Of a stretch of 64,000 nt of DNA, positions 2,418-62,606 are shown piece after piece. Positions within the stretch are counted from its first letter, which is position 1; every line of letters begins with the position of its first letter. The notes beneath the pieces are model-generated. The model saw only the letters and a list, made by a program, of their open reading frames with translations. It searched no databases and was not told where the DNA came from. The stretch comes from Escherichia phage ECML-123-2. The stretch lies in the sequence record OL631480. One strand, given 5' to 3'. The position numbers and the translations under genes are program-made.

Positions 2418-2447
2418 ATTATACCACATCCTTGTGGTAAAGTAAAC
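2418..2447 (-). promoter_or_regulatory. T4-type early promoter (minus strand: GTTTAC, 18 bp, TATAAT)
   Basis: minus-strand reading GTTTACtttaccacaaggatgtggTATAAT, about 25 bp upstream of the rIIA.1 start. Confidence 0.5.
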
Positions 2448-7450: not shown

Positions 7451-7480
7451 ACTATAACATTTTTACCTTAACTTGTAAAC
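7451..7480 (-). promoter_or_regulatory. T4-type early promoter
   Basis: minus GTTTACaagttaaggtaaaaatgtTATAGT upstream of 6668..7414. Confidence 0.5.
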
Positions 7481-7537
7481 AACTTTATGTAAAAATGCTT
7501 TAAAACTTTCATGGTATAATGAATCTAAGTCCTTCCA

Positions 7538-8757: not shown

Positions 8758-8783
8758 GATAGCCTCCGTATACTTCAGAAGCT

Positions 8784-8813
8784 ATCATATCATCGTTAGA
8801 AAGGAAAGTAAAC
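8784..8813 (-). promoter_or_regulatory. T4-type early promoter for modB
   Basis: minus GTTTACtttcctttctaacgatgaTATGAT. Confidence 0.5.
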
Positions 8814-8824
8814 AACTTTTTGAA

Positions 8825-9007: not shown

Positions 9008-9015
9008 ATTAATTC

Positions 9016-9843: not shown

Positions 9844-10315
9844 TTATTTTACCTAAAACAATAGTAGGAGCATCGTCAAATTTATGAATTTTTAGTAAAT
9901 TTGGATTTAACTTATTCCATAAAGAGGTAATAAAATATGATAGCGCACTTTCGTCCGTAATTATAAATTTATTTCCTTTATCTATTTTCCAATCATATAT
10001 TGAATCATATGAATAGAAGGATAACGGTTTATTATTATAATATGCTTCACTAACATCAATATAGTTAGATTTAGTAAATGCTTGAATTGCCATAAATGGA
10101 GAATTTTGTACAGTTTCAATAATTCCGATCTTTTTAAGTTTTATTTCAACATCTTCTGGAATTGGCATTGAAATAAAATCTTCTACTAGATACATGTTAT
10201 TGTCATATCTTTTATCAATCATTACTGCTACGGTAATTGGAACATCCTTGACAAACGCCATACTAATACTATTGATAGACATTTCAAACAAAATTGCTTC
10301 CATAATTTTCCTCAA
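9818..10315 (-). CDS. hypothetical protein
   Basis: 165-aa ORF. Confidence 0.6.
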
Positions 10316-10885: not shown

Positions 10886-10915
10886 ATTATACCATACTCA
10901 TTTTGGAAAGTAAAC
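10886..10915 (-). promoter_or_regulatory. T4-type early promoter
   Basis: minus GTTTACtttccaaaatgagtatggTATAAT. Confidence 0.5.
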
Positions 10916-10924: not shown

Positions 10925-10950
10925 GAAAAAAGGACTCCCGAAGGAGTCCT
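10925..10950 (-). terminator. rho-independent terminator after soc
   Basis: minus ggactccUUCGggagtcc followed by a T-run. Confidence 0.6.
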
Positions 10951-10957
10951 TGAATTA

Positions 10958-11203: not shown

Positions 11204-11271
11204 GTAATTCTCCTTTTATTTAAATTACATGATTATTTATAATAAATTCTCGCGGCTTTTAAGACGAGCTG

Positions 11272-11790: not shown

Positions 11791-11850
11791 TATTTTTCCT
11801 TTCAATTCATTAATAAGTTAAATAATTATACCATTTGAATATATAAGCAA

Positions 11851-12639
<789 letters not shown>

Positions 12640-12941: not shown

Positions 12942-13966
12942 ATCTTGGCATATTTAGATAGCCTCATTTTAGCCATTAACCCCTGGGCAATATTATTTTT
13001 CATATATTCCATAATTTGTTCAGGGGTTGCACCTTCCTTTCTAATCATATCATTGACATCTTTTGATTTCCAGGGAGATTTATCCCAAAACATAACCCTT
13101 TCTCCTGCATCAACTAATTTAGTCATTCGCTTAATAGTGTCAGGGTGACGAGGTTCATTATCTAAAACCCACACTCGTCTATCTTTAAATGGAACAACTT
13201 CTAGGTCTAATTGACCACCTGTAATAGCTATACCATTTTCAATAAAAAGTGAATCTATAGGTCCTTCTAGAACATATACATCACCATCTTTAACTCGTTC
13301 AACACCGTAAATTTTTGTTGCCTCAGGATAAGCTTTAATGGTGATATATTTTTGAGGAGCATCTTTCTTTAATGCACGTCCTTGAAAAGACTCAGCTTTT
13401 CCGTTAGCATTATAAATTGGAATAACAAGACGAGGCTCAGGTGTTTCCTTTTTATATGTTCCTGGAGCTATACTATTAACTAATTTAGGCCATTCAGTTG
13501 TAAACCAAAGATATTTCCATTTATCCTTTGGAATACAACGAGCTTTTACATATTTTATAATTGGATGGTCTTCCGCCAATTTATCTAATCTGATGCATGA
13601 CGGAAGAGATTTAATTATTTTCTTCTCAGGTTGTTTAGGAAGTTCTTTAGGTTTTTCTACTGGACGACTTTTACCTTTTTCTTTTCTTATTTCAAAGATA
13701 TACTCACGATATAAATCAGGTTCAAACTCCTTTAAATATATTCCGATTGGTGCATGGTAGTTACAGTTATAACAATGAATATTTCCTTCATTATTATCGC
13801 CATAATACCATCCACGGGCTTTATTTTGATCGGTTTTTGAATCTCCACAAACGGGACATCTAAACCGTAATTTAAAAGTTGAACTATTATTTACTTGTGC
13901 GAATTTAGGTAAATGAGCCAATGCACGGTATGCAAACTCATTATCAATCCAAGGTATTGATGACAT
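12938..13966 (-). CDS. 61: DNA primase gp61
   Basis: 342 aa with zinc-binding CPVCGDS...CYNC and primase core; same size as T4 gp61. Confidence 0.92.
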   Translation of the reverse strand: MSSIPWIDNEFAYRALAHLPKFAQVNNSSTFKLRFRCPVCGDSKTDQNKARGWYYGDNNEGNIHCYNCNYHAPIGIYLKEFEPDLYREYIFEIRKEKGKSRPVEKPKELPKQPEKKIIKSLPSCIRLDKLAEDHPIIKYVKARCIPKDKWKYLWFTTEWPKLVNSIAPGTYKKETPEPRLVIPIYNANGKAESFQGRALKKDAPQKYITIKAYPEATKIYGVERVKDGDVYVLEGPIDSLFIENGIAITGGQLDLEVVPFKDRRVWVLDNEPRHPDTIKRMTKLVDAGERVMFWDKSPWKSKDVNDMIRKEGATPEQIMEYMKNNIAQGLMAKMRLSKYAKI

Positions 13967-15054: not shown

Positions 15055-15114
15055 GATAATCTCCTCAGTAGTTTATGTTTATATAGTATCTCAATTTCCA
15101 ATAAAAGTAAACAG

Positions 15115-15372
15115 TTATTTTAAAACTTCTGCATAATCACATGTTACAAACTGTTTCTCTAACTTGGCGATTTTACGAAAGTATCTTTTGCATTGACGAA
15201 TCTGTCGCTTTGTAGGGCGCACAGCAAACTTAATAAATTCCACTCGACCAAATGGAGGGCTTTCTTCTGCCGGAATATCTAATACTAATTCCCACGTATC
15301 TGCAATAAGTGCTTTGAATTGAGTATTTTTCCTGACATTATACGGAGTAGGTTTAAATAAAACGATATGCAT
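15115..15372 (-). CDS. hypothetical 85-aa protein at the 61.4 position
   Basis: internal ATG at 15372 has SD gagga; longer track ORF overlaps dmd. Confidence 0.5.
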   Translation of the reverse strand: MHIVLFKPTPYNVRKNTQFKALIADTWELVLDIPAEESPPFGRVEFIKFAVRPTKRQIRQCKRYFRKIAKLEKQFVTCDYAEVLK

Positions 15373-15373: not shown

Positions 15374-15556
15374 TTATCCTCGGCAATCCACTTCACATAC
15401 CTTCTTGTCATCAATGAAAGCTTTAACTAGTGCTTTATTAACTTCAGCATATTGAGTAGTAGCCCATTGAACGTCATCTTTCATCATTGTGATCTCTTTA
15501 GTAAACATGCTTTCATTCTTAAACCACCCCATAAAAACTACCTTTACCAATTCCAT
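15374..15556 (-). CDS. dmd: Dmd-like antitoxin (discriminator of mRNA degradation)
   Basis: 60-aa ORF MELVKVVFMGWFKNES... directly downstream of gene 41, as T4 dmd. Confidence 0.65.
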   Translation of the reverse strand: MELVKVVFMGWFKNESMFTKEITMMKDDVQWATTQYAEVNKALVKAFIDDKKVCEVDCRG

Positions 15557-15569
15557 AACAATCTCCTCA

Positions 15570-15599
15570 TTTAACCAACAAGACTACTATACCATAGTC
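15570..15599 (-). promoter_or_regulatory. T4-type early promoter
   Basis: minus GTTTACaagctgacaagactatggTATAGT, with inverted repeat caagacta/tagtcttg around the -10. Confidence 0.5.
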
Positions 15600-15614
15600 T
15601 TGTCAGCTTGTAAA

Positions 15615-17042
15615 CTAAAATTTTAATTCATTTGCCAAAGCATCTAACTGAGCTCGAGTCGATTCGTTTCTTTGATAGCGATTCTGCTCAGCTTGTATCT
15701 GTTGTGAACCTGCTACCTCACTCACTTCAGTTGGAGTAGAATCTTGTTCAATTTCTACCCATTTCTGATTTCCTTTTTGAACACCCATCAAAAACTTATT
15801 CCATTTATTCTTATCACCATATCGTGATTTGATTTGCTTAATAAGTTGTTGTTCAGCAGCTGCTAACTCCTCGGTTTCAATGACCGCAAGCATAAAATCA
15901 GCTGTTGCTGGAAGACCGGCAGATTCTGCAATATCGCTCATGTTAACATCAGAAGAATCCCAAGCTTGTTTACCAACCTGTGCTGCAGTCCAAAGAACAG
16001 TTTCGGTTTCAACAGCAAGAGCACGTAATTCCTCTGCAATGGCTTTAACAGTTGTGTAACTATTTTCTGAGTAAACTCTAATGCGGCAAGATTTACAAAT
16101 ACCCAGATAGTCGACAATAATGATTGTTGGAACAAAATTCTTCTTGAGCTTTAATTCGTTTAAAAGCGATCGAAATGTATTAGCATCTGCTCCACCAGTA
16201 GGATACTGTTTAACTATTAAACGACCGAGAGTAGATTTCTCGCGCCATTTTTCCATTTTTCCTTTATACTCAGCGTAAGAAATATGCCCGTCATCAATGT
16301 CATCAAGAGAAACATCAAGCATATTAGCATCAATACGTTTAGCACAGACTTCTTCTGCCATTTCCATGGAGATATAAAGAACGTTATGACCAAGCTGTAA
16401 ATAATCCGCTGCTAATGAACAAAGTCCTAATGATTTACCAACGTTAACACCAGCCATTAAAACGTTCAGTGTTCCTGTCTCAGCTCCGCCTTTAGTAATT
16501 TTGTTTAGAATTCTGAGTTTAAATGGAACTTTACGAGCTTTATTCATATAAGATAGCCAGCGTGCTTCGTAGTCATCCATCCAATCATGACCAACGTAGC
16601 TATCAAATGAAATTGATAATGCTTGACGCATGATATCAGGAATAGCACCTACATCTGGCATTTTCTTATTTCGTTTTTCCGGAGGAAGCTCAGCATTAGT
16701 TTGAATTTCGATTATTTTAGACGTAGCATTAAACATCGCCCTTTGCTGAACATATTTTTCTGTTTCTTTTACTAACCAACTGTGGTCTTCTGGAGAATCG
16801 GCTAGTTTTGAAATAAGTGTTTTTACACCAGAATATTCTGTTTCAGTAAATGAACTATTTTCTAATGCAACATTTAACGCATTAATAGATGGAACGCTAT
16901 GATACTCATTAACATGAGATTTAATTAATTTGAACGTATTTTTAGCTGGACCACTTTCAAAATATTCTGAATCCATATATGGCCAAACTTTTGAAAAATA
17001 AGCTTGATCAAATATGAGATGAGAAAGAATAATTTCTACCAC
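15615..17042 (-). CDS. 41: replicative DNA helicase gp41 (DnaB family)
   Basis: 475 aa, Walker A GVNVGKS; same size as T4 gp41. Confidence 0.95.
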   Translation of the reverse strand: MVEIILSHLIFDQAYFSKVWPYMDSEYFESGPAKNTFKLIKSHVNEYHSVPSINALNVALENSSFTETEYSGVKTLISKLADSPEDHSWLVKETEKYVQQRAMFNATSKIIEIQTNAELPPEKRNKKMPDVGAIPDIMRQALSISFDSYVGHDWMDDYEARWLSYMNKARKVPFKLRILNKITKGGAETGTLNVLMAGVNVGKSLGLCSLAADYLQLGHNVLYISMEMAEEVCAKRIDANMLDVSLDDIDDGHISYAEYKGKMEKWREKSTLGRLIVKQYPTGGADANTFRSLLNELKLKKNFVPTIIIVDYLGICKSCRIRVYSENSYTTVKAIAEELRALAVETETVLWTAAQVGKQAWDSSDVNMSDIAESAGLPATADFMLAVIETEELAAAEQQLIKQIKSRYGDKNKWNKFLMGVQKGNQKWVEIEQDSTPTEVSEVAGSQQIQAEQNRYQRNESTRAQLDALANELKF

Positions 17043-18647: not shown

Positions 18648-19496
18648 TTAATCAACTGCTATTGGATGAATAGCATTAAACTTATGAAATGCTTCTGATT
18701 TTTCTTTACGTGAAACGCACATGCGAAGAACCTTTAATGGCTCGTCTTCTTCACCCAACGATTTTCGTTTTTCAATATTAGAAGTTTTCCAACGAGCTTG
18801 CTCTGGAAACTCTCTATTGATTTGCTCAAGCGCTCTATTATGTTTAGAATTACTACGAATTGAACTGCACCCGCCAGGAGCTTGTGCTTTTCCAGATACA
18901 ACCAGATATTTGAACAAGGCCAAATGCGGATAACCTTGATTAATTAAATTGAGAAATGCATACATATCTTCGCACAAATCAATTTTTCCATACCCAATTT
19001 GTTCTGTCGTAAGTTTTCCAAGGTCATACCATGTATTCGTGAATCCATATGAATTTTCACGATAATTACCCCAAGATGAAGTAATTTTAAAAATTGGTAG
19101 ACGAGCATGACCGTGATAATACCCGCAATCCATGGCATCTTCAACATATTGAATCAATTCATAGAACTGTTCACGAGTTAATTGATTAATTTTATCTACG
19201 CGCCGTTTATCGTCTCTCTTTCGTATTGAACTCATACGGATAGTAGTATCATCGTCAATCATCCAGATTCGTTGACCTGCATACATATCAGTAATTGCTT
19301 TACGAGTACCGGCAATTCCATTAACATCATCAGGAATAGTTACAATTTTAGCTCTAGACCCATAGGCATCATAATAAGCTTTTTCTTCGTGTTCACGCAC
19401 TACAATATGGGGTTCATAATCAGTCGGAAACATATCAAGGGCAGAAACTGCCCCTACACGTTGATAGCTTGGAATTACGAATTGAATCATTTCCAC
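18648..19496 (-). CDS. DNA glycosyltransferase at the beta-gt locus, probably T2/T6-type beta-glucosyl-HMC alpha-glucosyltransferase
   Basis: 282 aa, shorter than and unlike 351-aa T4 beta-gt; has DxD-like MIDDDT; lies between uvsX and 42. Confidence 0.55.
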   Translation of the reverse strand: MEMIQFVIPSYQRVGAVSALDMFPTDYEPHIVVREHEEKAYYDAYGSRAKIVTIPDDVNGIAGTRKAITDMYAGQRIWMIDDDTTIRMSSIRKRDDKRRVDKINQLTREQFYELIQYVEDAMDCGYYHGHARLPIFKITSSWGNYRENSYGFTNTWYDLGKLTTEQIGYGKIDLCEDMYAFLNLINQGYPHLALFKYLVVSGKAQAPGGCSSIRSNSKHNRALEQINREFPEQARWKTSNIEKRKSLGEEDEPLKVLRMCVSRKEKSEAFHKFNAIHPIAVD

Positions 19497-20227
19497 TCAC
19501 CGTTATAATCTTTTTTCACAATATGAGTTTCGCCAGTATTCCACCAATGATCAACCAAGTAAAAATGACGAGAATATACATGAAGACTTCCAACATTCCA
19601 TATAATAGAACCTGCTTTATACTGACGAGTTGAATCGCCTGCATTCAAATCAGATACTAATTTATCTAATACGTATTTTTGCCATGCATAATCATTACGG
19701 AATCCGAAGACCACGTCATTTGAGCGCATGCTTACTACTGCATTGACTTTCTTATCACGAATCAGGTACTGTACTGTATTAGTACACATGAAATCTGACA
19801 TACCATCTTTATTGTAGTCAAATTGCATGGATGGACGAGTATAAATCATGATACCACGCCGAGAATCAGGATTTTGACCAAGTTCAGCTAAACACATATC
19901 ATACTGGGCATAGTTATCTTCTGACCAAATAGCCCAACCATAATTCGAGTTAATTTCGCCTTTAGAAGATGCTACCTGCTGCCAAATCTTTGGTGTTTCA
20001 CCTGGAATATCTTTAACAAACAAGCTCTTAGATTTATACCATTCAAGTTCGCGCTGAATGTATTCATCATTAAGAGCGCCAAAAATAAACGGTTCATCTG
20101 CTACAAATGATGCGCCAATAATTTCAATAGTTTTAACACCGGTTTTATCAACTACGAAATCTTTTTCTTTTAATGCAAGCCCCAAATGAAGACGGATTTC
20201 TTCAACTGTCATAGAGTCACTAATCAT
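19487..20227 (-). CDS. 42: dCMP hydroxymethylase gp42
   Basis: 246 aa, thymidylate-synthase-like; same size as T4 gp42. Confidence 0.95.
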   Translation of the reverse strand: MISDSMTVEEIRLHLGLALKEKDFVVDKTGVKTIEIIGASFVADEPFIFGALNDEYIQRELEWYKSKSLFVKDIPGETPKIWQQVASSKGEINSNYGWAIWSEDNYAQYDMCLAELGQNPDSRRGIMIYTRPSMQFDYNKDGMSDFMCTNTVQYLIRDKKVNAVVSMRSNDVVFGFRNDYAWQKYVLDKLVSDLNAGDSTRQYKAGSIIWNVGSLHVYSRHFYLVDHWWNTGETHIVKKDYNGEWK

Positions 20228-20380: not shown

Positions 20381-20632
20381 TCATTCCTTCTCTCTGATGA
20401 TAATTACTTGATTTGGCTGTGCAGACTTTTTAGTTTCACCCGCAATTGACCAAATAAATGTAATAAACCAACCAATAATTGACCAGTTAAACAGTAAAGA
20501 TGTGAAAAAGATTCCTACTGTCGATTTTGACCCACGCATCAAGGCGATGAACCATGGAAGCATGTATATAATAATAGCCAACACACCTGAAACTAAAACC
20601 ATAAAAATTGAACCTGCTACTAAAGTTTCCAT
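20381..20632 (-). CDS. imm: Imm, membrane protein for immunity to superinfection
   Basis: 83-aa two-TM protein between 42 and 43, same size as T4 Imm. Confidence 0.8.
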   Translation of the reverse strand: METLVAGSIFMVLVSGVLAIIIYMLPWFIALMRGSKSTVGIFFTSLLFNWSIIGWFITFIWSIAGETKKSAQPNQVIIIREKE

Positions 20633-21030: not shown

Positions 21031-21279
21031 TCAAATGCAAGTAGTAATTACTCCAGTAGTGCTTATGCAGGTATTACCCATTTGCACACCTAAAGATCCA
21101 TTTGTATTCACATGAAGATTATCATCAATTTTAACTGATATTTTACCATTAGTGTGAATAACGGTGCTAGATTCAATCACAGGTTGAGTATCATTTTCAA
21201 CACTAACAAATGGAACTGCTGCTAATGCAACTAAACAAACTGCTAAGCATCCCATAACAATTTTCATTTCATTCTCCAA
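21031..21279 (-). CDS. small secreted/membrane hypothetical protein
   Basis: 82 aa with hydrophobic N-terminus; early promoter directly upstream. Confidence 0.55.
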   Translation of the reverse strand: MENEMKIVMGCLAVCLVALAAVPFVSVENDTQPVIESSTVIHTNGKISVKIDDNLHVNTNGSLGVQMGNTCISTTGVITTCI

Positions 21280-21304
21280 ATCCGTATCAGTAGTTGATAG
21301 TTGT

Positions 21305-21334
21305 ATAGTACCATAGAAGAACAGGGATGTAAAC
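21305..21334 (-). promoter_or_regulatory. T4-type early promoter (conserved family member)
   Basis: minus GTTTACatccctgttcttctatggTACTAT with conserved upstream ATTCCCTAAAAATTTTTTCACAAAACT. Confidence 0.5.
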
Positions 21335-21417
21335 AGTTTTGTGAAAAAATTTTTAGGGAATCCAAAGGGTCCAGAATCATCTCTTTTTCATAAGTATAGA
21401 TTTATATTACTTGTATG

Positions 21418-21442
21418 AAAAAGGGACCTGGAGGTCCCTAGA
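21418..21442 (-). terminator. terminator after gene 43
   Basis: minus agggaccUCCaggtccct followed by tttt. Confidence 0.55.
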
Positions 21443-24226: not shown

Positions 24227-24448
24227 TTAAATTAGTACTATTTGTCGGTGAAAAATTGTCATTCCATCTGCATTAATTGACTTAACGACTGCAGTAAAGT
24301 GTTTTTGTTCTGGGTGAATTAATTTTTGAAATTCTACCTGAAATTTTAGTTGAAGGTTTTCTGGTAAATCGAAAAGTGTTTCTGTTGCAGAAAGATTATA
24401 TTTTTCTTTAAGAGACGCCATGTATTCTTGCGGAGTTATAGCAGTCAT
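24227..24448 (-). CDS. hypothetical protein (73 aa from internal ATG)
   Basis: ORF between regA and 43; ATG one nt after the regA stop. Confidence 0.4.
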   Translation of the reverse strand: MTAITPQEYMASLKEKYNLSATETLFDLPENLQLKFQVEFQKLIHPEQKHFTAVVKSINADGMTIFHRQIVLI

Positions 24449-24449
24449 A

Positions 24450-24818
24450 TTAATTACCAATCGTATATTTAGGAACGAGTTTCCATTCATGTTTTTGTTT
24501 AAAAGAAATAACTCGGAAATTATTAGTTAAATCTTTCATAAAAGTTCTTTGACCAGGAACGATTTCAATCAGTCCCCAATCTTCTAACAGCCATGCAATC
24601 GAATCACGACGAACTTCATCTTCTTCTGTCATTTCAACTTGGCAACCATCCATACGAAGCATTTCTTTAAAATGAACGATATAGTATAGTCCTTTTTTCT
24701 GAAGAATATGACAGGACTGATACAGAACTTTATCTTTATTATTAGCAATTCCCATACGAGTCAAAGTTTCTTTTACTTTCAGAAAATCTTCAGGTTTTTT
24801 AAGAGTAATTTCAATCAT
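24450..24818 (-). CDS. regA: RegA translational repressor
   Basis: 122 aa MIEITLKKPEDFLKVKETLTRMGIANNKDKVLYQSCHILQKKGLYYIVHFKEM... matches recalled T4 RegA. Confidence 0.92.
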   Translation of the reverse strand: MIEITLKKPEDFLKVKETLTRMGIANNKDKVLYQSCHILQKKGLYYIVHFKEMLRMDGCQVEMTEEDEVRRDSIAWLLEDWGLIEIVPGQRTFMKDLTNNFRVISFKQKHEWKLVPKYTIGN

Positions 24819-26395: not shown

Positions 26396-27082
26396 TTAAA
26401 AATCATGGGTAGAATCAGCTTCAAGAGCTACTACATAATTCGCATGTTCACCTTCAAATTTAGCAGCGCCTTGTTTACCTTTTGCCCAAAGCAGAAGTTT
26501 ATAATTTCCTGGTTGCATTTTCATATTTGCCATATTGATAATGAAATTAAATGTGTTTTCACCATCATAATCACCAAGAGTCAAAGAATATTTAACACGA
26601 GTCAAAGCAGAATCTTCTACTTTATTAAAACCGTTAATTACGATTTTACCTTCTTTTACTGTGATAGCAATTGTATCAATCTGCAGACCGCGAGATACAC
26701 GCAACAGCTGTTGAAGGTCTTCAGCTTTAATTTCGGTAACAACAGATGCTACCGGGAATGGAATTGGTTTATTAGGAGCAACTACTGTACTCGGATCGGC
26801 TGCTGGCCAAAAAATTGTTGAACGGGCATCAGCAATTTTAATATTTCCATCTTCTGACTGGGAAATTTCTGCATCATCATTAACTAGCGACAGAATACCG
26901 AGAAAACCGTTCAAATCGTAAATTGCTACATCAAAATCAATAACGTCAGAAATATTTGCTTCCGCGTAAGTTGTACCATTAACTGCGCGAGTCATAATAA
27001 ATTGACCGGATTTAAGCATAATGCCAGAGTTAATAGTAGCGAAATTTTTAAGCAGAGCAGTAGTATCTTTAGACAGTTTCAT
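26396..27082 (-). CDS. 45: sliding clamp gp45
   Basis: 228 aa, same size and position as T4 gp45. Confidence 0.92.
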   Translation of the reverse strand: MKLSKDTTALLKNFATINSGIMLKSGQFIMTRAVNGTTYAEANISDVIDFDVAIYDLNGFLGILSLVNDDAEISQSEDGNIKIADARSTIFWPAADPSTVVAPNKPIPFPVASVVTEIKAEDLQQLLRVSRGLQIDTIAITVKEGKIVINGFNKVEDSALTRVKYSLTLGDYDGENTFNFIINMANMKMQPGNYKLLLWAKGKQGAAKFEGEHANYVVALEADSTHDF

Positions 27083-31105: not shown

Positions 31106-32305
31106 TTTTGTAATAATGTCAAACTGTTCTTTAAAGCAGAAGCTTGAATCTTGATGCTGATACAAAAATTCATATGCTTTTTCTCGCTCACGGTCATAAA
31201 GAGCTCGGTCAGATGACAGTTCTTTAATACGTTCAAACGTTGATTCCATATCATTTTCATCAAACCAAATGATACCGCTATCATGCGAGGTCAAAGGAGT
31301 ATTATCAACACGGAATTTTAAATTTTCGCCAGTAGATTTCCAAAATACCGGAATTGTTCCACATGCACCAAGCTCGAGATGAGTATATTCTAAAGAACGT
31401 TGCAGATATTTTTTATCCAACTTACTCAACTGATAACCAAATCCGGATTTACTCATGCGTTCAAGCATTTCGCTATTTACATAACGGTCAAGAATTTGCG
31501 TTGGCAAATTAGGAGCAATTTTAATTTGGTCTACTTGATGAAGACGATAATACTCGTATGGAATTCCTTTTTCTTTAATAGGAATGAACGCTGGAGAACG
31601 TTCCAGACCTTCCATAATAGTACTTAGTCCTGCAGGTTTAAGATGTTTTTCATGAAAATCAAACATCTGATAAAAACCTTTCCATGTAGTCGTACGACCA
31701 ATCCAACGGTTGATATTCATGTTAATTTCAGAAACATCTTTCCAGTAGGTTGACCGAACCTTCGCAATATCCATAGGAGGCTGAAAGTTATATACTGTCG
31801 GTGCTTCTTCAATATCATCAAACAGAGAAACAGTTTCTGGATACCATTCTTTCATCAGAACTTTATTAAAATCACCATTATCAGAATGGCTAAAAATAAC
31901 ATCAGCTCGACGAACAGTTTCTTCTAATCCCAAATTTCGACGCAAAGAAAGAGAAGAATGGTCATGTTGATAAACTACAACACGAACCGAAGGTTTAATG
32001 TTATCAATAATTTTTTTATAGTTATTAATAGTGTCTTCTTCAACTGAAGTAGCAGGAACTGAATTGATAATTAGAATATCACAATCATTTACCAGCTTAA
32101 GTGTTTTATCGTATTCTTTTGCCAATAAAACCGGAATTGAAAATGATTTATAATCATGCGCGCAATTACGAGTAAATGATTTATCTTTAGCATAAACCAA
32201 AGTTACTTCATGACCATTTTTAATAAACCAATCACGTTGCTCGAGTGAGAATTTTGTTACACCACAACCTTCAAGACCTCGAGCCATAAAAATACATGCT
32301 TTCAT
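31103..32305 (-). CDS. a-gt: DNA alpha-glucosyltransferase
   Basis: 400 aa, near-identical to recalled T4 alpha-gt (…CIFMARGLEGCGVTKFSLEQRDWFIKNGHEVTLVYAKDKSF…). Confidence 0.95.
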   Translation of the reverse strand: MKACIFMARGLEGCGVTKFSLEQRDWFIKNGHEVTLVYAKDKSFTRNCAHDYKSFSIPVLLAKEYDKTLKLVNDCDILIINSVPATSVEEDTINNYKKIIDNIKPSVRVVVYQHDHSSLSLRRNLGLEETVRRADVIFSHSDNGDFNKVLMKEWYPETVSLFDDIEEAPTVYNFQPPMDIAKVRSTYWKDVSEINMNINRWIGRTTTWKGFYQMFDFHEKHLKPAGLSTIMEGLERSPAFIPIKEKGIPYEYYRLHQVDQIKIAPNLPTQILDRYVNSEMLERMSKSGFGYQLSKLDKKYLQRSLEYTHLELGACGTIPVFWKSTGENLKFRVDNTPLTSHDSGIIWFDENDMESTFERIKELSSDRALYDREREKAYEFLYQHQDSSFCFKEQFDIITK

Positions 32306-32329
32306 TTAATATCCTCTTTGTTTTGGTTT

Positions 32330-35079: not shown

Positions 35080-35373
35080 TCAGCTATAACGATAACACTC
35101 GTTTGATTTACGTTTAGCAACTCGTTGAGAAGTATTATAATCAAAATCATCGTCAATGTAAACTGATTTTTTCAACTTTCTTACTTCACCGCGTAATTGA
35201 CGATTTAACTCATCTTTAACTTCTGAATCAATACCTTTCATTCTACGCCATTTATCTGAGCGAAAAATGTTTTCAACCATATCTTTATGACTTACACCAT
35301 CAGGAGCTTTACGCTTTCCGAAATAGTCATAATCACGAACTTTCAAGTCTTTACGACGATACGTTTTACCCAT
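35080..35373 (-). CDS. hypothetical basic protein (97 aa)
   Basis: ATG at 35373 with SD aaggaa; track start is GTG. Confidence 0.5.
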   Translation of the reverse strand: MGKTYRRKDLKVRDYDYFGKRKAPDGVSHKDMVENIFRSDKWRRMKGIDSEVKDELNRQLRGEVRKLKKSVYIDDDFDYNTSQRVAKRKSNECYRYS

Positions 35374-35548
35374 GGAGTTTAATTTCCTTAGCAACTGAAC
35401 TAAATGCAGCACGATCGCAAATCATGCGTTTATGTAACTTGAGTATAATATAGCAAACTTCAAAACTATTTACATGAGTAACACGAACAGCATTACCATT
35501 AATGAGATAATACTGTCCCTTTTTAATTTCTTTATCAACCATAACCAT
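35366..35548 (-). CDS. hypothetical protein
   Basis: 60-aa ORF with SD gagga and early promoter upstream. Confidence 0.5.
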   Translation of the reverse strand: MVMVDKEIKKGQYYLINGNAVRVTHVNSFEVCYIILKLHKRMICDRAAFSSVAKEIKLHG

Positions 35549-35578
35549 ATCAATTCCTCAAAGGCAATTCATATGTTA

Positions 35579-35608
35579 ATAATACCACAGTTTGAGCTCG
35601 TTGTAAAC
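35579..35608 (-). promoter_or_regulatory. T4-type early promoter (conserved family member)
   Basis: minus GTTTACaacgagctcaaactgtggTATTAT with conserved upstream ATTCCCTAAAATAATTTTCACAAAGTT. Confidence 0.5.
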
Positions 35609-35706
35609 AACTTTGTGAAAATTATTTTAGGGAATGATAAGAAGGGAACGATAGCTTAGAATGGTAATATACAGAATGTGAGAAAGAAGGACCCAGAGGG
35701 CCCGTC

Positions 35707-40160: not shown

Positions 40161-40264
40161 TTAAGTCATTTATCGTTGGTTCATTATATACTGTTTCTTC
40201 ATCAGTGTAAACCGGTTCTTCCGGCTCTGGCTCTACAGTTTCCCATCTAGCCGCCCACCAAGGT

Positions 40265-43557: not shown

Positions 43558-43587
43558 ATTATACCACATCCTTGTGGCAAAGTAAAC
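43558..43587 (-). promoter_or_regulatory. T4-type early promoter, near-identical to the rIIA.1 promoter
   Basis: minus GTTTACtttgccacaaggatgtggTATAAT. Confidence 0.5.
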
Positions 43588-45975: not shown

Positions 45976-46503
45976 TTATGCGAGTACCGTCTTTAACCGT
46001 TCTTCAAACTTCCGAAGAGTATTTTGGCGTTCAGCTCTTTGCTTTTTGTAAGTTTCAATACGCTCTGAAATGAGAGTGTATCGTTCATTTACTGATTCTT
46101 TCATAAAATCAGGAATTTCACGAGAAGCTTTAATCTCGTCAAATTTATCAATAACAGCTTGCTCTTCAGCAATTAAGTTATCATACATTAAAATATCTTT
46201 CTTGATAAACTCAATATCTTCTTGAGTTACACGAGATAATTTAGATGCTTTATCCTTTTTGTACTGTTCGTTAGTATCACGAGACCAGTGTAATGTACGA
46301 TTTTTATTCGTATTTTTGTAAATTTCTACAATACCGATCTCATCGATAATAACGATCCAATTCCAACGGGATTTGTAAATTTGTCCTCCATCAACAGTGA
46401 TTTCACCTCCGATTGAGATGTCATTAAAGAACTTGCTTTGCGCTTCAGATTTAAATTTACCATCGTTGTAATTTACTAAGTTGAAAATATCTTTAGCGTT
46501 CAT
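45976..46503 (-). CDS. hypothetical protein
   Basis: 175-aa ORF with SD ggagga and early promoter. Confidence 0.6.
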   Translation of the reverse strand: MNAKDIFNLVNYNDGKFKSEAQSKFFNDISIGGEITVDGGQIYKSRWNWIVIIDEIGIVEIYKNTNKNRTLHWSRDTNEQYKKDKASKLSRVTQEDIEFIKKDILMYDNLIAEEQAVIDKFDEIKASREIPDFMKESVNERYTLISERIETYKKQRAERQNTLRKFEERLKTVLA

Positions 46504-46531
46504 TTTCTGTTCCTCCGTAGTTGATAGTTGT

Positions 46532-46561
46532 ATAGTACCACAGAGGAACAGTCTTGTAAAC
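46532..46561 (-). promoter_or_regulatory. T4-type early promoter
   Basis: minus GTTTACaagactgttcctctgtggTACTAT. Confidence 0.5.
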
Positions 46562-46967: not shown

Positions 46968-47936
46968 TTATTTCAGAAGAGTAACCTCAGCAATTTCTTC
47001 CCAACCGTTTTTGTCGGTCATAATAAAGTCAGCAAGATAAAGAGCAGTACGCAGTGAAACATTGCGTAAACGATTAACATTAACTTTCATCCATGATAAT
47101 GCTTTATAAGTTTCTTCATCAGAAAGACCGCGCTTTTGCATCATGTCAGTTGAAAGAATAACATCTTCAACCCTGACCATAATTTCTTCATTAGTGTGAA
47201 CACCCAAATCCAAATAAACCGAGCGGGACACTAATGCTTGTAAATGTGGAGCAAGTTTAGTACCACGGTCTAATTCGCGGTCAATGTCAACGTTTGTGAT
47301 AAAAACAATCGTTCCTTTAAATTCAAACTCACGCTCAATGCCTTTTTCTTCTAAGTAAGAAGACGCAGTGCTCCAGCAGACTTTACGGGTCTCTCCGGTG
47401 TCCAGAGCAGCTTTCAGAAGATTAAGAATGTCCATATCAGAGAAAACATCCACATCATCAATCAAAAGGACAGAATTCTCTTCACGATTATTCCAAAGCT
47501 GTTCATAAAGACCAATACCAGAGATTTTACCATTAATGCTTTTATATTCAATGTATCCAATATCATTTGCTTTATTTAAAGCTTTATCTAAAGAATACGT
47601 TTTACCAATGCCTGCCGCACCAGAGATAATTAATGAACGAATGTTTCCGTTAATAATACCATTCGTCATCATTCCCATAACATTAAATCTTTTATTAATG
47701 CGGGTTTTCATATCTTCATACGATTCTTTAACTTCTTCAACTTTTACACCATCATATGAAATGTCTGATTTGTAAACCCAAACACCGCGACGTTTACCGT
47801 CAATTTCAACAAAAACTTTACCATCTCCTTGTGCATCTACTGGAGCATTATCTGGGAACCATTCGCCTAAGAGCTCAAAAGTTCCAGAGATTTCTTTACC
47901 GAAGTAGATACCCTTATTGATAGTTACAGTTTTCAT
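46968..47936 (-). CDS. P-loop NTPase (AAA-like), nrdC.10 position
   Basis: 322 aa from ATG at 47936; Walker A GAAGIGKT, Walker B VLLIDDVD; own early promoter. Confidence 0.65.
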   Translation of the reverse strand: MKTVTINKGIYFGKEISGTFELLGEWFPDNAPVDAQGDGKVFVEIDGKRRGVWVYKSDISYDGVKVEEVKESYEDMKTRINKRFNVMGMMTNGIINGNIRSLIISGAAGIGKTYSLDKALNKANDIGYIEYKSINGKISGIGLYEQLWNNREENSVLLIDDVDVFSDMDILNLLKAALDTGETRKVCWSTASSYLEEKGIEREFEFKGTIVFITNVDIDRELDRGTKLAPHLQALVSRSVYLDLGVHTNEEIMVRVEDVILSTDMMQKRGLSDEETYKALSWMKVNVNRLRNVSLRTALYLADFIMTDKNGWEEIAEVTLLK

Positions 47937-47970
47937 TTTATTCTCCAAATCCGTATCAGTTGATAGTTGT

Positions 47971-48000
47971 ATAGTACCATAAAGCTTTATGCTTGTAAAC
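47971..48000 (-). promoter_or_regulatory. T4-type early promoter (conserved family member)
   Basis: minus GTTTACaagcataaagctttatggTACTAT, inside the longer track ORF. Confidence 0.5.
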
Positions 48001-48028
48001 AATTTTGTGAAAAAATTTTTGAAATAAA

Positions 48029-48052
48029 AAAAGGGAGCCCGAAGGCTCCCTA
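48029..48052 (-). terminator. UUCG-tetraloop terminator after the NTase-like gene
   Basis: gggagcccgaaggctccc followed by a T-run on the minus strand. Confidence 0.55.
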
Positions 48053-50747: not shown

Positions 50748-50777
50748 ACTATATCATAATCTTGTCAACTTGTAAAC
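50748..50777 (-). promoter_or_regulatory. T4-type early promoter with palindrome
   Basis: minus GTTTACaagttgacaagattatgaTATAGT inside inverted repeat gttgacaagatta/taatcttgtcaac. Confidence 0.45.
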
Positions 50778-51559: not shown

Positions 51560-51589
51560 ATAGTATCACAGCTCAAATTGAAAGTAAAC
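51560..51589 (-). promoter_or_regulatory. T4-type early promoter
   Basis: minus GTTTACtttcaatttgagctgtgaTACTAT. Confidence 0.5.
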
Positions 51590-55765: not shown

Positions 55766-55795
55766 ATTATACCACAGTCAAGAGGAAAAGTAAAC
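55766..55795 (-). promoter_or_regulatory. T4-type early promoter for regB
   Basis: minus GTTTACttttcctcttgactgtggTATAAT. Confidence 0.5.
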
Positions 55796-58374: not shown

Positions 58375-58404
58375 ATATACTATCACAATTCTAGGAGAAA
58401 GTAA
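58375..58404 (-). promoter_or_regulatory. T4-type early promoter for denV
   Basis: minus GTTTACtttctcctagaattgtgaTAGTAT. Confidence 0.5.
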
Positions 58405-58410
58405 ACAACT

Positions 58411-61818: not shown

Positions 61819-61865
61819 AGTATTTCCTTAGGTTAATTGAGATTTAAAATCCATGAGAGTATTAT

Positions 61866-62039
61866 ACTCCGGATAGTTTGTAAACTATTTCAACATCGCC
61901 TTTTGCTGCTTTATAACCTTCAGCCCAAGATACAACCGAGTTTTTATCCGAAGATTCAAATTCTGGCATTGGGCTTTCGCCAATGTTCACGCAGTATGTT
62001 TCTTCATTTTCGTCGAACCAAATAATTAAAGTAGTCATT
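61866..62039 (-). CDS. small hypothetical protein (57 aa), not in ORF track
   Basis: MTTLIIWFDENEETYCVNIGESPMPEFESSDKNS... with SD ggagaaataa. Confidence 0.4.
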
Positions 62040-62107: not shown

Positions 62108-62383
62108 TTATTTCATATTATTGAAATATTCTTCTGCGATTTCATCGTTATCATGGTAAACTTTAGAAGACAGTTTAACATAACCTTCAGCAGTGAACAT
62201 GTTAATCACAACCTTTACAGTATACCACTGACCATCTTCATTACCCATTACTGCATAGGTTTCAAACATCGGATGGTCAGGACCGATAACTTTAATATCA
62301 TTCACTGTACGACCGAAATCTTCTGAAACACATTTCATAAAGAAGTTGAACAGTTCGCCGTAATTATCCATTTCATTCTCCAA
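62108..62383 (-). CDS. hypothetical protein
   Basis: 91-aa ORF with SD ggagaatga and early promoter. Confidence 0.6.
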   Translation of the reverse strand: MENEMDNYGELFNFFMKCVSEDFGRTVNDIKVIGPDHPMFETYAVMGNEDGQWYTVKVVINMFTAEGYVKLSSKVYHDNDEIAEEYFNNMK

Positions 62384-62413
62384 GTTGTTTTTGTATCAGT
62401 AGTTGATAGTTGT

Positions 62414-62443
62414 ATAGTACCATGGAAGAACAGGGATGTAAAC
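62414..62443 (-). promoter_or_regulatory. T4-type early promoter (conserved family member)
   Basis: minus GTTTACatccctgttcttccatggTACTAT with the same upstream element as 21305..21334. Confidence 0.5.
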
Positions 62444-62576
62444 AGTTTTGTGAAAAAATTTTTTAAAAAGTTTTAGGGAATTCTAGGGCAGGGAGGGGCA
62501 ATTAAAAGATAGGATAATATATTATAAAGGGTAGAAACTAAATGATGTCTAGAGAGGCCCGGAAAGGCCTAGATAC

Positions 62577-62606
62577 CAAAAAGCCCCAACCTTTTGGTCG
62601 GGGCTA
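62577..62606 (-). terminator. rho-independent terminator after the internal-protein-like gene
   Basis: minus agccccgaccAAAAggttggggct followed by ttttgg. Confidence 0.6.

Follow-up and report, generated by a model that had tools for sequence, protein, structure and literature searches.

The stretch at 21281-21360 raises two questions: whether it belongs to a family of dispersed early promoters and, if so, why the copies resemble one another over more DNA than promoter elements need. We analyzed a 64,000-nucleotide stretch of Escherichia phage ECML-123-2 (record OL631480), referred to here as the window. It is the early-gene arm of a Tequatrovirus, running from rIIA to the tRNA cluster; over this range it is collinear with T4, and it is 98–99% identical to sequenced T4-like coliphages. 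A motif search of the window for GTTTAC-N18-TAnnnT gave 19 exact matches, all of them on the minus (coding) strand; the plus strand had none. Thus, the minus-strand family described in an earlier note on this DNA is real, but its count of 15 was too low. The number is far beyond chance, as 100 dinucleotide shuffles gave a mean of 0.75 matches and a maximum of 5, and the spacing is specific (0, 0, 1 and 3 minus-strand matches for N16, N17, N19 and N20, respectively). All 19 sites have a sigma-70 type -10 (TAnnnT) 17 bp from TTTACA, TG precedes the -10 at 14, and a ribosome-binding site and ATG follow 25–60 nt downstream of 17. The consensus over the 19 sites contains A- and T-runs from about -62 to -38. 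T4 has orthologs at the corresponding positions for every site, and the same motif occurs 26 times in T4 1–80 kb, always on the minus strand and at orthologous positions.

Statistical support for the promoters comes only from this T4-specific pattern, because a generic sigma-70 consensus scan of the whole window showed no enrichment in such A+T-rich DNA (87, 84, 91 and 19 matches versus 90, 86, 85 and 14 expected). Being no better than shuffles, the generic scan can neither support nor refute promoters, and its terminator part alone was useful. An Rfam scan of the window detected only two tRNAs and no known RNA family overlapping the cassettes described below. The T4 GenBank record has no annotated promoter features, and a literature search for genome-wide T4 start-site mapping found nothing usable. 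Two sites, 35163 and 40212 (sites are named by the first base of GTTTAC), are intragenic and lack TG, and therefore may not be promoters; judged by sequence, the former is doubtful, and the latter is a possible pin promoter.

The early promoters (Pe) of T4 were reportedly catalogued by Wilkens & Rueger and by Miller et al. in 2003. They have been reviewed (Hinton 2010, PMC2988021) and have GTTTAC at -36 to -31 and an A-rich region at -40 to -44 that resembles an UP element (PMC1524935); regB, for example, is transcribed from an early promoter (PMC3014915). The sites in the window share with T4 Pe the GTTTAC at -36 to -31, the 17-bp spacer, the TG-extended -10, the A/T-rich UP-like region and the location upstream of early genes on the counter-clockwise strand, and the orthology is site by site. 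Nothing essential differs. There are small variants, such as an e.8-type spacer in the imm.1 promoter, and, as a result of indels, some promoters drive genes other than in T4: imm.1 is preceded by an additional ORF, and, in the absence of ipII and ipIII, the leader of the ipIII-type promoter runs into denV, which takes the place of ipIII. The interpretation as early promoters, already offered in the earlier note, is well founded: the phage is T4-like, all 19 sites are orthologous in T4, and a public record (MZ726795.1) labels the 21334 ortholog a T4 early promoter. Its depositors placed a terminator there, followed by a promoter described as similar to the phage T4 early promoter. It is highly probable that the sites are T4-type early promoters located in ~100-bp terminator-promoter-leader cassettes (PeSL, see below) whose copies exchange sequence. 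The promoter consensus, the UP element and the recombination-cassette idea are all already published, and the finding is real but ordinary.

Five sites form a sub-family (cassettes A–E, Table 1): the four cited previously (21334, 35608, 48000 and 62443) and 46561, which had been overlooked. They have in common the UP-element-like A/T tract, the -35, the TG-extended -10 and the transcript start (ACAACTATCAAC), and four of the five share a GGAG ribosome-binding site. The cassettes span 90–113 bp and comprise an A/T-rich region, -35, -10, ribosome-binding site and ATG; at the four cited sites, AAAAATTTTTTCACAAAAC or close variants occur in the A/T-rich region upstream of the -35. The cited sites are all present where they had been placed, but the full ATTCCCTAAAA-TTTTTTCACAAAACT-GTTTAC-N18-TACTAT arrangement attributed to them runs without a break only at 21334. 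At 62443, an insertion of 11 nt separates ATTCCCTAAAA from the T-run, 35608 has ATTCCCTAAAATAATTTTCACAAAGTT upstream and TATTAT as the -10, and 48000 lacks ATTCCCTAAAA. What had been called a 60-bp upstream element is actually 24–38 nt upstream of GTTTAC, extending to about -63 from the predicted start. Conservation past the -10 had been missed. ACAACTATCAAC follows the -10 at 21334, 62443, 48000 and 46561, and the first three continue alike, TTGGAGAAT(G/A)AAATG, to the start codon, with GGAGGAACAGAAAATG at 46561. In the window ATTCCCTAAAA occurs three times and TTTTCACAAA five times, on the minus strand every time. The closest pair, 21284-21354 and 62393-62463, is identical at 70 of 71 positions; when the motif is set aside, 21334 and 62443 have 60 of 70 positions in common, compared with a median of 25 for all promoter pairs. 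Terminator hairpins were found upstream of 21334, 35608, 48000, 62443, 10915 and 51589, and the terminator scan of the window detected none upstream of the remaining promoters of the 19. The counterpart of the hairpin at 21422..21439 is annotated as a rho-independent terminator in MZ726795.1, and the hairpin at 62582-62605 is duplicated at 63139-63162, the two copies flanking a 522-bp insertion missing from T4.

Table 1. Positions in the window of the sub-family cassettes, neighboring hairpins and other core-motif sites
Feature	Position	Strand	Remarks
Cassette A	21265..21361	-	Site of the earlier note; orthologous to T4 27051-27080, upstream of imm.1
A, upstream element ATTCCCTAAAAATTTTTTCACAAAACT	21361-21335	-	
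A, -35 GTTTAC	21334-21329	-	17-bp spacer counted from TTTACA
A, TG-extended -10 TGGTACTAT	hexamer 21310-21305	-	Predicted start near 21298
A, leader ACAACTATCAACTACTGATACGGATTT; GGAG	21277-21274	-	
A, ATG	21267-21265	-	Start of 78-aa ORF
Rest of 78-aa ORF, PHROG 4189 (unknown function)	21031..21264	-	Between cassette A and imm.1; missing from T4
Intrinsic terminator AGGGACCTCCAGGTCCCT + TTTTT	21422..21439	-	Just past gene 43 (DNA polymerase) stop, 60 nt upstream of cassette A
Cassette B	62369..62481	-	Orthologous to T4 70667-70696; 70/71 match with 21284-21354
B, ATTCCCTAAAA, 11-nt insertion, then TTTTTTCACAAAACT	62481-62471 (ATTCCCTAAAA)	-	
B, GTTTAC; -10 TACTAT	62443-62438; 62419-62414	-	
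B, leader ACAACTATCAACTACTGATAC...; GGAG; ATG	GGAG 62381-62378; ATG 62371-62369	-	ATG of e.8 homologue
Strong terminator hairpin AGCCCCGACCAAAAGGTTGGGGCT + TTTT	62582..62605	-	100 nt upstream of cassette B
Cassette C	47934..48024	-	Orthologous to T4 55355-55384; upstream TTTCAAAAATTTTTTCACAAAATT
C, GTTTAC; -10 TACTAT	48000-47995; 47976-47971	-	
C, leader ACAACTATCAACTGATACGGATTT; GGAG; ATG	GGAG 47946-47943; ATG 47936-47934	-	ATG of nrdC.10 homologue
Terminator hairpin AGGGAGCCTTCGGGCTCCCT + TTTTTTT	48032..48051	-	Abuts cassette C; tight terminator-plus-promoter (PeSL-type)
Cassette D	35546..35635	-	ATTCCCTAAAATAATTTTCACAAAGTT; orthologous to T4 41677-41706
D, GTTTAC; -10 TATTAT	35608-35603; 35584-35579	-	
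D, leader; GAGG; ATG	ATG 35548-35546	-	Leader unlike other cassettes; ATG of 55.6 homologue
Terminator-like hairpin	35689-35703		Upstream of cassette D
Cassette E	46501..46561	-	GTTTAC 46561-46556; -10 TACTAT 46537-46532
E, ACAACTATCAACTAC, GGAGGAACAG; ATG	ATG 46503-46501	-	ATG of nrdC.8 homologue
Core, upstream of rIIA.1	2418..2447	-	Within 3' end of topoisomerase gene; 31/32 versus 43558-43589
Core, upstream of srd	7451..7480	-	T4 11822-11851
Core, upstream of modB	8784..8813	-	T4 13157-13186
Core, upstream of mrh.2	10886..10915	-	T4 15259-15288; terminator hairpin 10930-10951 adjoining upstream (PeSL-type)
Core, upstream of sp	15083..15112	-	T4 20080-20109
Core, upstream of dmd	15586..15615	-	T4 20583-20612
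Core motif within 55.5 homologue	35134..35163	-	No TG; next start codon ~60 nt off
Core motif within 49.1 homologue	40183..40212	-	41 nt upstream of pin; no TG
Core, upstream of nrdC.4	43558..43587	-	T4 50944-50973
Core, upstream of mobD.2	50748..50777	-	T4 57961-57990; 13-bp inverted repeat around -10
Core, upstream of mobD.5	51560..51589	-	T4 58751-58780; terminator hairpin 51605-51622 adjoining upstream (PeSL-type)
regB early promoter	55766..55795	-	T4 62768-62797; spacer pairs with regB ribosome-binding region
ipIII-type early promoter	58377..58406	-	T4 66469-66498; leader fused to denV
Diverged ortholog of T4 e.6-upstream promoter	61856..61885	-	T4 69938-69967; poor -10 TACTCT

Promoter activity, start sites and early timing are assigned to ECML-123-2 by homology to T4, and for transcription start and timing, alpha-CTD contact, RegB cleavage and recombination itself we draw on the literature. 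In T4, early promoters in general (PMC2988021), and that of regB (PMC3014915), are active straight after infection, even in chloramphenicol and hence with no need for newly made phage proteins. On this basis, unmodified E. coli sigma-70 RNA polymerase would read each Pe once phage DNA enters the cell. The A/T tract at about -56 to -38 (AAAAATTTTTT..ACAAAAC) would serve the alpha C-terminal domains as an UP element close to consensus, GTTTAC(A/T) at -36 to -30 would be the T4 version of the -35 element, followed by the optimal 17-bp spacer, and TGnTA(C/T)(T/A)AT would serve as an extended -10, with the start predicted ~7 nt further on, inside ACAACTATCAAC. The leader, 30–45 nt, would end in GGAG, a likely target of the RegB nuclease, and the start codon. 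The dispersed copies would exchange sequence through homologous recombination or gene conversion, and small genes would be gained, lost or swapped at the cassette edges. The likeness of the sub-family beyond the general consensus would then result from constraint over ~100 bp, not 12 bp, together with exchange among copies.

The UP consensus of Estrem et al. (1998/1999) is said to extend from -59 to -38 and to consist of an A-tract, a T-tract and a proximal A-tract. As in UP elements of the rrnB P1 type, an A-tract and then a T-tract occupy ~-57 to -47 in the phage cassettes, followed by an A-rich proximal subsite at ~-46 to -38; by inspection, AAAAATTTTTTCACAAAAC fits most positions of the consensus, at the right distance from the -35. 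The binding site for a host factor that had been suggested earlier is plausible: the A/T tract agrees with the UP element to which the alpha C-terminal domains of host RNA polymerase bind. Unlike the rrnB P1 type, these are phage promoters, some of them further stimulated by Alt: injected Alt ADP-ribosylates alpha Arg265 and thereby stimulates some T4 early promoters (PMC2988021). This modification would be expected to weaken ordinary UP-dependent promoters.

Cassettes of ~100 bp that join promoter, leader and start codon have already been described as recombination hot-spots (PMC2839356; PMC4122927). PeSL stands for promoter-early stem-loop, an arrangement through which genes were proposed to be shuffled (Arbiol et al. 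2010, PMC2839356; Comeau et al. 2014, PMC4122927); its consensus for the T4/PST pair is TTTACW-N17-TAYWAT (PMC4122927). The cassettes in the window resemble PeSL in that conservation is spread over ~100 bp, from the A/T-rich region through the -35, -10 and ribosome-binding site to the ATG. A stem-loop or terminator precedes some of them, they appear to lie among small variable ORFs, and individual indels end at them. They differ from PeSL as follows. A hairpin with a T-run abuts the promoter only at 48000, 10915 and 51589 (the gap is 53–100 nt at 21334, 35608 and 62443), indels show no statistical enrichment at cassettes relative to T4, and recombination, seen directly in RB49 and phi1, is suggested here by spacers and leaders that are mosaic between loci and genomes. 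Promoter-plus-leader repeats were also reported at the IP loci of T-even phages (Repoila et al. 1994, via PMC2839356). As far as that account goes, these too are early-promoter-based repeats beside genes that vary in presence (the window lacks ipII and ipIII); however, the four cited sites are outside the IP loci, and, unlike those in the window, which end at the ATG, the IP repeats extend into the first codons of the capsid-targeting sequence.

The proposal that the long repeats serve as recombination substrates thus coincides with the published PeSL hypothesis, and both mosaic spacers and cassette-bounded indels are compatible with it. At the imm.1 locus the spacer has AAGAC or AAGAA in T4 and some relatives and ATCCC, the e.8-locus type, in the window and others. 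The switch consists of four clustered differences in otherwise near-identical orthologs, and the paralogs within the window (70/71) are more similar than the imm.1 orthologs of the window and T4 (66/71). Such mosaic spacers could also come from divergent alleles swapped between co-infecting phages rather than between paralogous copies. The indel carrying the extra ORF (21031-21267) is bounded by a common octamer, ATGAAAAT, at the cassette A start codon, and this 78-aa ORF is present in some IMG/VR relatives and absent from others. Also cassette-bounded are the loss of ipII and ipIII, with fusion of the ipIII promoter to denV, and the e.7 replacement, which lies between two cassettes and has the 61856..61885 site as its left edge. 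The 49.2/49.3 replacement starts 19 bp from the 40183..40212 site. In one IMG/VR locus (L052), ACAACTATCAA precedes an inserted module of 722 bp, behind which comes another promoter-like cassette. Among the indels relative to T4 other than homing endonucleases, 3 of 13 end in a cassette (5 of 13 leniently); in this single comparison with T4, enrichment at cassettes was not significant against a gene-junction null, in which ~18% of T4 gene junctions have the motif and a two-junction version predicts about one third.

The strongest alternative, though considerably less likely, is pure functional constraint from ~-60 to the ATG (promoter strength, escape and translation) on copies that never recombine. 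TTTTCACAAA, the -35, the TG -10 and the CTATCAA past it are kept even in distant T4-like phages: TTTTCACAAAnnnGTTTAC-N18-TAnnAT, with CTATCAA just past the -10, was found in ~25 IMG/VR contigs, including T4-like phages outside Tequatrovirus. Extra consensus regions were noted in published alignments (PMC2988021), and the lack of statistical indel enrichment at cassettes also agrees with constraint. However, the 18-nt spacer is identical at 17 of 18 positions between 21334 and 62443, yet free to differ among the other 17 promoters; ATTCCCTAAAA, which lies outside the UP element, occurs in three copies only; and the imm.1 spacer switches to the e.8 type as a four-base block in some relatives. 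In addition, one promoter core is joined to differing leaders and genes, with the breakpoint directly after ACAACTATCAA, and mini-circles arising when such cassettes recombine were demonstrated in RB49 and phi1 (PMC2839356). The 97-nt cassette itself was found at 1315 places in 530 phage records.

It is improbable that the extended element is a site for a dedicated regulator other than RNA polymerase, such as a phage factor for early shut-off or a nucleoid protein. Early-promoter shut-off is still not understood (PMC2988021; PMC3014915) and conservation reaches past the canonical hexamers, but the conserved upstream part has no dyad and fits the UP-element pattern and position, and the conserved parts coincide with regions known to contact RNA polymerase, with nothing found for a second protein. 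Inverted repeats do surround some -10 elements, as at the dmd site (ACAAGACT and AGTCTTGT on both sides of the -10) and at its paralogue upstream of mobD.2, which differs by a compensatory change in the stem; these repeats vary in sequence among promoters and therefore cannot be a common operator. Remnants of segmental duplication, in which paralogous genes kept their promoters, would account for five dispersed copies in the same orientation, but we regard this as very improbable: the copies cease to be similar at the ATG or no more than two codons from it, the upstream flanks are unrelated, and the four downstream proteins tested belong to different PHROG families or to none. An all-against-all comparison of the five downstream proteins found no mutual similarity, which ruled out gene duplication. 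Finally, chance matches in A+T-rich DNA, with which the shuffled-level result of the generic scan would agree, can be dismissed, as none of the 100 shuffles reached 19 and the matches share one strand, one spacing, a 70/71 pair and orthologous T4 positions.

With the sites read as T4-type early promoters in exchanging cassettes, the motif is a reliable annotation map of about 17–19 early transcription units in the window, and the cassettes mark where small accessory genes swap between T4-like phages. They are also natural landing pads for homologous-recombination engineering of these phages. Otherwise little is added, the 21334 ortholog being already annotated in the public record. Repeats of 70–110 bp that lie 41 kb apart and are as much as 99% identical can cause breaks or false joins in short-read assemblies, and a 10-N gap in the window is located where T4 has a degenerate cassette copy. 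An apparent 3.7-kb deletion by this copy coincides with the 10-N run and was discarded as a probable assembly gap.

A separate observation is that some promoters lie in conserved hairpins in which the spacer pairs with the gene's own ribosome-binding site. For nrdC.8 (46561), the spacer CTGTTCCTC pairs with the ribosome-binding region GAGGAACAG (MFE -23.8 kcal/mol, z = -6.5). The regB hairpin (MFE about -22 kcal/mol, z about -5 to -6) occurs in three clades with differing distal stems, and the RNA predicted from regB's own promoter is unstructured. A self-versus-cross duplex test gave p = 0.003 and 0.0007, and the ribosome-binding-site hairpin structure is kept through compensatory change across clades. 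No regB-like hairpin was detected at the four cited promoters (z -0.2 to +1.1), 46561 alone of the sub-family forming one. We tentatively suggest, while considering it the less probable outcome, that a subset of T4-type early promoters (regB, nrdC.8 and the ipIII/denV type; in T4 also dexA and denV) is built into hairpins that mask the ribosome-binding site. The -35/-10 spacer would be the 5' arm, the -10 and start site the loop, and the leader with GGAG the 3' arm. Because the 5' arm lies upstream of the start of the internal promoter, RNA reading through from a promoter further upstream would conceal the ribosome-binding site and the RegB cleavage site, whereas both would be accessible in RNA from the gene's own promoter.

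In T4, hairpins with an internal late promoter are known to conceal the ribosome-binding sites of e, soc, 49 and I-TevI (PMC3014915). There too the 5' arm is upstream of the start of the internal promoter, but those promoters are late; here the promoter is early, and its own -35/-10 spacer would form the 5' arm. The early-promoter hairpins may be less well described than the promoters themselves. If true, the e/soc/49/I-TevI logic would extend from late to early promoters, and this would explain why some promoter spacers are conserved or co-vary though RNA polymerase does not read them.

A search of the whole window for GTTTAC-N18-TAnnnT yielded 19 matches (numbered here by the first base of GTTTAC), all on the minus strand and none on the plus strand; the expected number is 0.75, and none of 100 shuffles gave more than 5. 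An earlier note had reported fifteen sites sharing this core: the phenomenon was confirmed, but the count was too low. On the minus strand, spacings of N16 and N17 gave no match, N19 one and N20 three. A ribosome-binding site and a same-strand ATG follow 25-60 nt downstream of 17 of the 19 sites, and TG occupies the extended -10 position in 14; the two sites outside the 17, 35163 and 40212, are located within small genes and have no TG. In the first 80 kb of T4 (AF158101) there are 26 such sites, again all on the minus strand, with a counterpart at the orthologous place for every window site. A generic TTGACA/TATAAT scan of the window revealed no enrichment in this A+T-rich DNA; the case for promoters is therefore built on the T4-specific pattern together with orthology.

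T4 early promoters carry GTTTAC at -36 to -31, an A-rich UP-like region at -40 to -44 and a sigma-70 -10 element (PMC1524935), and have been called 'uber UP/-35/TGn/-10 promoters' whose alignments 'reveal additional regions of consensus' (PMC2988021). Judged by sequence, the window sites share every testable defining feature of this class. Site 55795 is the early promoter from which regB is transcribed (PMC3014915). In record MZ726795.1, the ortholog of 21334 is labeled 'promoter, similar to phage T4 early promoter GTTTAC(N14)gtggTAttaT (Miller et al. 2003)', and a rho-independent terminator is annotated just upstream of it, past the DNA polymerase gene. Pattern, orthology, published definition and annotation all support the proposed early promoters. 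The earlier note was right on this point and also on recombination substrates and factor binding, each of which is already in the literature; the 97-nt cassette occurs in 530 phage records at 1315 places, and the promoter-cassette finding as a whole is already known.

A 4-kb piece around a cited site matched 669 phage records (~500 at 95-99% identity), all from T4-like coliphages and relatives (Tequatrovirus), with annotated DNA polymerase, imm and dCMP hydroxymethylase. BLAST aligned the window with T4 in 21 collinear blocks of 85-98% identity, which run from rIIA (T4 position 12) as far as the tRNA region (~71.2 kb). Its genes are all on the minus strand, G+C is 31-38%, and it is the classical early/prereplicative arm of the T4 genome.

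The four sites named in the earlier note, 21334, 62443, 48000 and 35608 (cassettes A-D, preceding imm.1, e.8, nrdC.10 and 55.6), were located where it had placed them; 46561 (cassette E, nrdC.8) is a fifth member. The four had been described as sharing one full string ending in TACTAT. Uninterrupted ATTCCCTAAAAATTTTTTCACAAAACT-GTTTAC-N18-TACTAT occurs among the four only at 21334; the description fails at 62443, which has an 11-nt insertion following ATTCCCTAAAA, at 35608, which has TAATTTTCACAAAGTT and TATTAT as the -10, and at 48000, which lacks ATTCCCTAAAA. It also missed a downstream similarity: ACAACTATCAAC directly follows the -10 at 21334, 62443, 48000 and 46561, and the first three run on into TTGGAGAAT(G/A)AAATG, which comprises ribosome-binding site and start codon, where 46561 has GGAGGAACAGAAAATG. 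The closest pair, 21284-21354 and 62393-62463, is identical at 70 of 71 positions. Outside the search pattern, promoters 21334 and 62443 agree at 60 of 70 positions, versus a median of 25 and a 95th percentile of 35.5 over 171 promoter pairs. A second near-identical pair (31/32), 41 kb apart at 2418-2449 and 43558-43589 before rIIA.1 and nrdC.4, has the palindromic spacer CCACAAGGATGTGG in common and is also present in T4 (2429-2458, 50944-50973).

With the -10 hexamer set at -12 to -7, GTTTAC falls at -36 to -31, TTTACA-N17-TACTAT has the optimal 17-bp spacer, and the upstream block spans -63 to -37. Within this block, AAAAATTTTTT (~-56 to -46) and ACAAAAC (~-44 to -38) correspond to the distal and proximal subsites of a UP element, for which the consensus is reportedly that of Estrem et al. 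1998. The idea of factor binding is, by analogy, consistent with this fit and has been published for T4 early promoters (PMC1524935). The outermost ATTCCC, present in only three copies, goes beyond what an UP element requires. Transcription is predicted to start within ACAACT-A-TCAAC, and the leader of 30-45 nt closes with GGAG, the RegB target motif (PMC3014915), followed by an A-rich stretch and ATG. The repeat stops at the start codon, the upstream flanks of the copies are unrelated, and the five downstream proteins showed no similarity when compared with one another. These unrelated proteins and flanks rule out duplicated genes; the copies are regulatory cassettes.

An exact-pattern scan of IMG/VR for TTTTCACAAAnnnGTTTAC-N18-TAnnAT returned 63 copies on ~25 contigs, including T4-like genomes with flanks wholly unlike the window. 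The upstream TTTTCACAAA and CTATCAA(C) right behind the -10 recur in these flank-unrelated genomes, and both positions are weakly conserved in the 19-site window consensus, which argues that much of the ~100 bp is constrained in all T-even-type early promoters. The likeness of the copies, which exceeds what a promoter needs, has two separable contributions, an extended functional consensus and probable exchange between copies. The spacers of 21334 and 62443 are identical at 17 of 18 positions, though outside any consensus. The e.8-locus spacer reads ATC(C/T)(C/T)TGTTCTTCC in every genome compared, and the imm.1-locus spacer is either AAGACTG or AAGAATG (T4 and three IMG/VR genomes) or the e.8 form, ATCCCTG or ATCCCCG (the window and two IMG/VR genomes), within flanks 93-99% identical in genomes of both forms. 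Because of this four-change block, the window paralogs (70/71) are closer to each other than the window's imm.1 copy is to its T4 ortholog (66/71). The leaders, too, form a mosaic: at the imm.1 locus, one genome has an nrdC.10-type leader (ACAACTATCAACTGATACGG...AATAAAATG). Patterns of this kind are expected from gene conversion or from recombination between dispersed copies, in line with the proposed recombination substrates and with the published idea of promoter-early stem-loops (PeSL). It is possible that exchange of divergent alleles between co-infecting phages gave the same pattern.

PeSL cassettes (Arbiol et al. 2010; Comeau et al. 2014) consist of a hairpin, A/T-rich region, -35, -10, ribosome-binding site and ATG (PMC2839356, PMC4122927), with a T4/PST-pair consensus of TTTACW-N17-TAYWAT (PMC4122927). 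The window sites have the compositional features of PeSL, but only partly the hairpin adjacency: the hairpin adjoins the promoter at 48000, 10915 and 51589, and elsewhere the gap is 53-100 nt. Upstream of cassette B, a strong terminator hairpin is present as 36-bp direct repeats (62573-62608 and 63130-63165, 97% identical) around a 522-bp insertion (62608-63129) absent in T4; an ORF at this place (62613-63263) has hits to PHROGs 2280 and 28391, neither with a known function. This insertion looks like a module brought in by recombination at the terminator hairpin.

Collinearity with T4 breaks at 20 places. Six or seven reflect homing endonucleases or an intron gained or lost, and another falls at a run of 10 N (5840-5849), where ~3.7 kb of T4 (6536-10220: motB, motB.1, motB.2, dexA, dexA.1, dexA.2 and the 5' part of dda) is missing and dda is truncated. 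A scaffold or assembly gap is more probable here than a deletion. A degenerate copy of the cited cassette lies exactly there in T4 (6548-6647, upstream of cef), which suggests that the cassette repeat broke the assembly.

Of the 13 remaining breaks, three end within a cassette (table). At one of them, T4 has its own denV promoter with N17 spacing, whereas the window has an ipIII-type promoter in its place; polymorphism of the IP locus was first noted by Repoila et al. 1994 (PMC2839356). There were two near misses, a 49.2/49.3 replacement beginning 19 bp from the intragenic motif 40212 and the 522-bp insertion upstream of cassette B. The motif is found at ~18% of T4 gene junctions (24 sites, roughly 130 genes), so that chance alone would bring roughly a third of two-junction events to a cassette; in this single comparison with T4, 3-5 of 13 indels represent no enrichment at cassettes. 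The association is thus anecdotal here, and the general claim rests on published work, including mini-circles detected experimentally in RB49 and phi1 (PMC2839356). The mini-circle model predicts a cassette-gene-cassette layout, which is found in L052, an IMG/VR relative: a 722-bp module lies directly behind ACAACTATCAA of the nrdC.10 cassette, and between this module and nrdC.10 there is a second, weaker promoter-like cassette (GTATAC-N18-TATAGT). Small ORFs absent from T4 (PHROGs of unknown function) lie between conserved genes at four junctions with no GTTTAC promoter; not all gene gain in the window proceeds through cassettes. Between the pin and gene 49 homologues, 63-bp direct repeats (39427-39489 and 39640-39702, 83% identical; one copy in T4) flank a 58-aa ORF (39444-39620).

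Features associated with early promoters and with differences from T4
Feature	Position	Detail
Targets of the 19 sites (T4 annotation)		rIIA.1, srd, modB, mrh.2, sp, dmd, imm.1; 55.4 (site inside 55.5), 55.6, pin (site inside 49.1), nrdC.4, nrdC.8, nrdC.10; mobD.2, mobD.5, regB, ipIII, e.6, e.8
Promoter hairpins (minus strand)	55736-55800; 46501-46561; 58350-58406; 50715-50777; 15550-15615; 8755-8813	Loci L071-L089
regB distal stems by clade		CTTGACTG/CAGTTAAG; CTAGTTG/CAACTAG; TGTAAG/CTTACA
Terminator-like hairpins and T-runs upstream of cited sites	21422-21439; 35689-35703; 48032-48051; 62582-62605
Hairpins upstream of two further promoters	10930-10951; 51605-51622
Homing-endonuclease/intron breaks		mobA/60.1, segF, mobB, mobC, I-TevII intron, mobD, segA with glucosyltransferase swap
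Further coordinates of these differences	11242-11271; 32297-32320; 37097-37117; 38394-38395
78-aa ORF (PHROG 4189) between cassette A and imm.1		Bounded by shared ATGAAAAT
ipII and ipIII missing	58356-58406	ipIII-type promoter joined within leader to denV ribosome-binding site
e.7 region		Replaced between two cassettes
Non-cassette ORF insertions	24227-24490; 33877-34146; 36002-36313; 4600-4973	43/regA; 55/55.1; nrdH/55.8; 39.1/39.2

From the sequence features, positions, orthology and mosaicism observed, we infer a course of transcription and recombination. Most likely, host sigma-70 RNA polymerase would bind the cassette promoters straight after DNA injection, with probable contacts of alpha-CTD to the UP tract, region 4 to GTTTAC, region 3 to TG and region 2 to the -10; the injected Alt enzyme stimulates some T4 early promoters further (PMC2988021). 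Transcripts would have short leaders, whose GGAG ribosome-binding sites would later be cut by RegB. Since the copies are near-identical over 30-70 bp, the very active T4 recombination system could use them; T4 recombination needs <50 bp of homology (Arbiol et al., PMC2839356). The outcome would be copy-by-copy conversion, with small genes between cassettes gained, lost or swapped, each moved gene retaining its promoter and ribosome-binding site.

When the segment starting at GTTTAC and ending at the start codon was folded for each promoter, six gave strong hairpins (z = -3.5 to -6.5), namely 55795 (regB), 46561 (nrdC.8), 58406, 50777, 15615 and 8813; the four cited sites gave none. In the folds of 55795, 46561 and 58406, the promoter spacer makes up the 5' arm, GGAG is covered by the 3' arm, and the -10 and start site sit in the loop; in those of 50777 and 15615, GGAG is unpaired and the 3' arm is found shortly past the start site; at 8813, the 5' arm begins in the -10 hexamer, not the spacer. 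The regB stem is kept in three clades (100%, 77% and 68% protein identity) with differing distal sequences, and in the nrdC.8 stem a distant clade pairs TCTCCAGTAG/CTACTGGAGG in place of CTGTTCCTC/GAGGAACAG; both stems are kept by compensatory changes across clades. Promoters 15615 and 50777, which are paralogous, have stems distinguished by a compensatory C>T/G>A pair. Spacers pair better with their own leaders than with those belonging to other promoters (permutation p = 0.003 for the window, 0.0007 for T4), an effect that comes from a few promoters. RNA from regB's own promoter is predicted to be unstructured. In these folding models, read-through RNA would hide the ribosome-binding site and own-promoter RNA would leave it free. 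The e, soc, 49 and I-TevI hairpins contain late promoters (PMC3014915); the window hairpins resemble these, but their internal promoters are early.

Several other differences from T4 were noted. The topoisomerase large subunit (2447-4267) is a single unsplit 606-aa ORF, with no gene 60 bypass region, 60.1 or mobA. The segF, mobB and mobC homing-endonuclease genes and the nrdD intron with I-TevII are missing from the window, and other sequence replaces the mobD and segA regions. A beta-glucosyl-HMC-alpha-glucosyltransferase homologue (18648-19496; PHROG 842, E = 2.5e-89) is present where T4 has beta-glucosyltransferase, so DNA glucosylation is expected to follow a pattern unlike that of T4. Finally, tRNA-Arg(tct) is followed by tRNA-His(gtg) at 63839-63994, whereas the annotated set of eight T4 tRNAs lacks tRNA-His.
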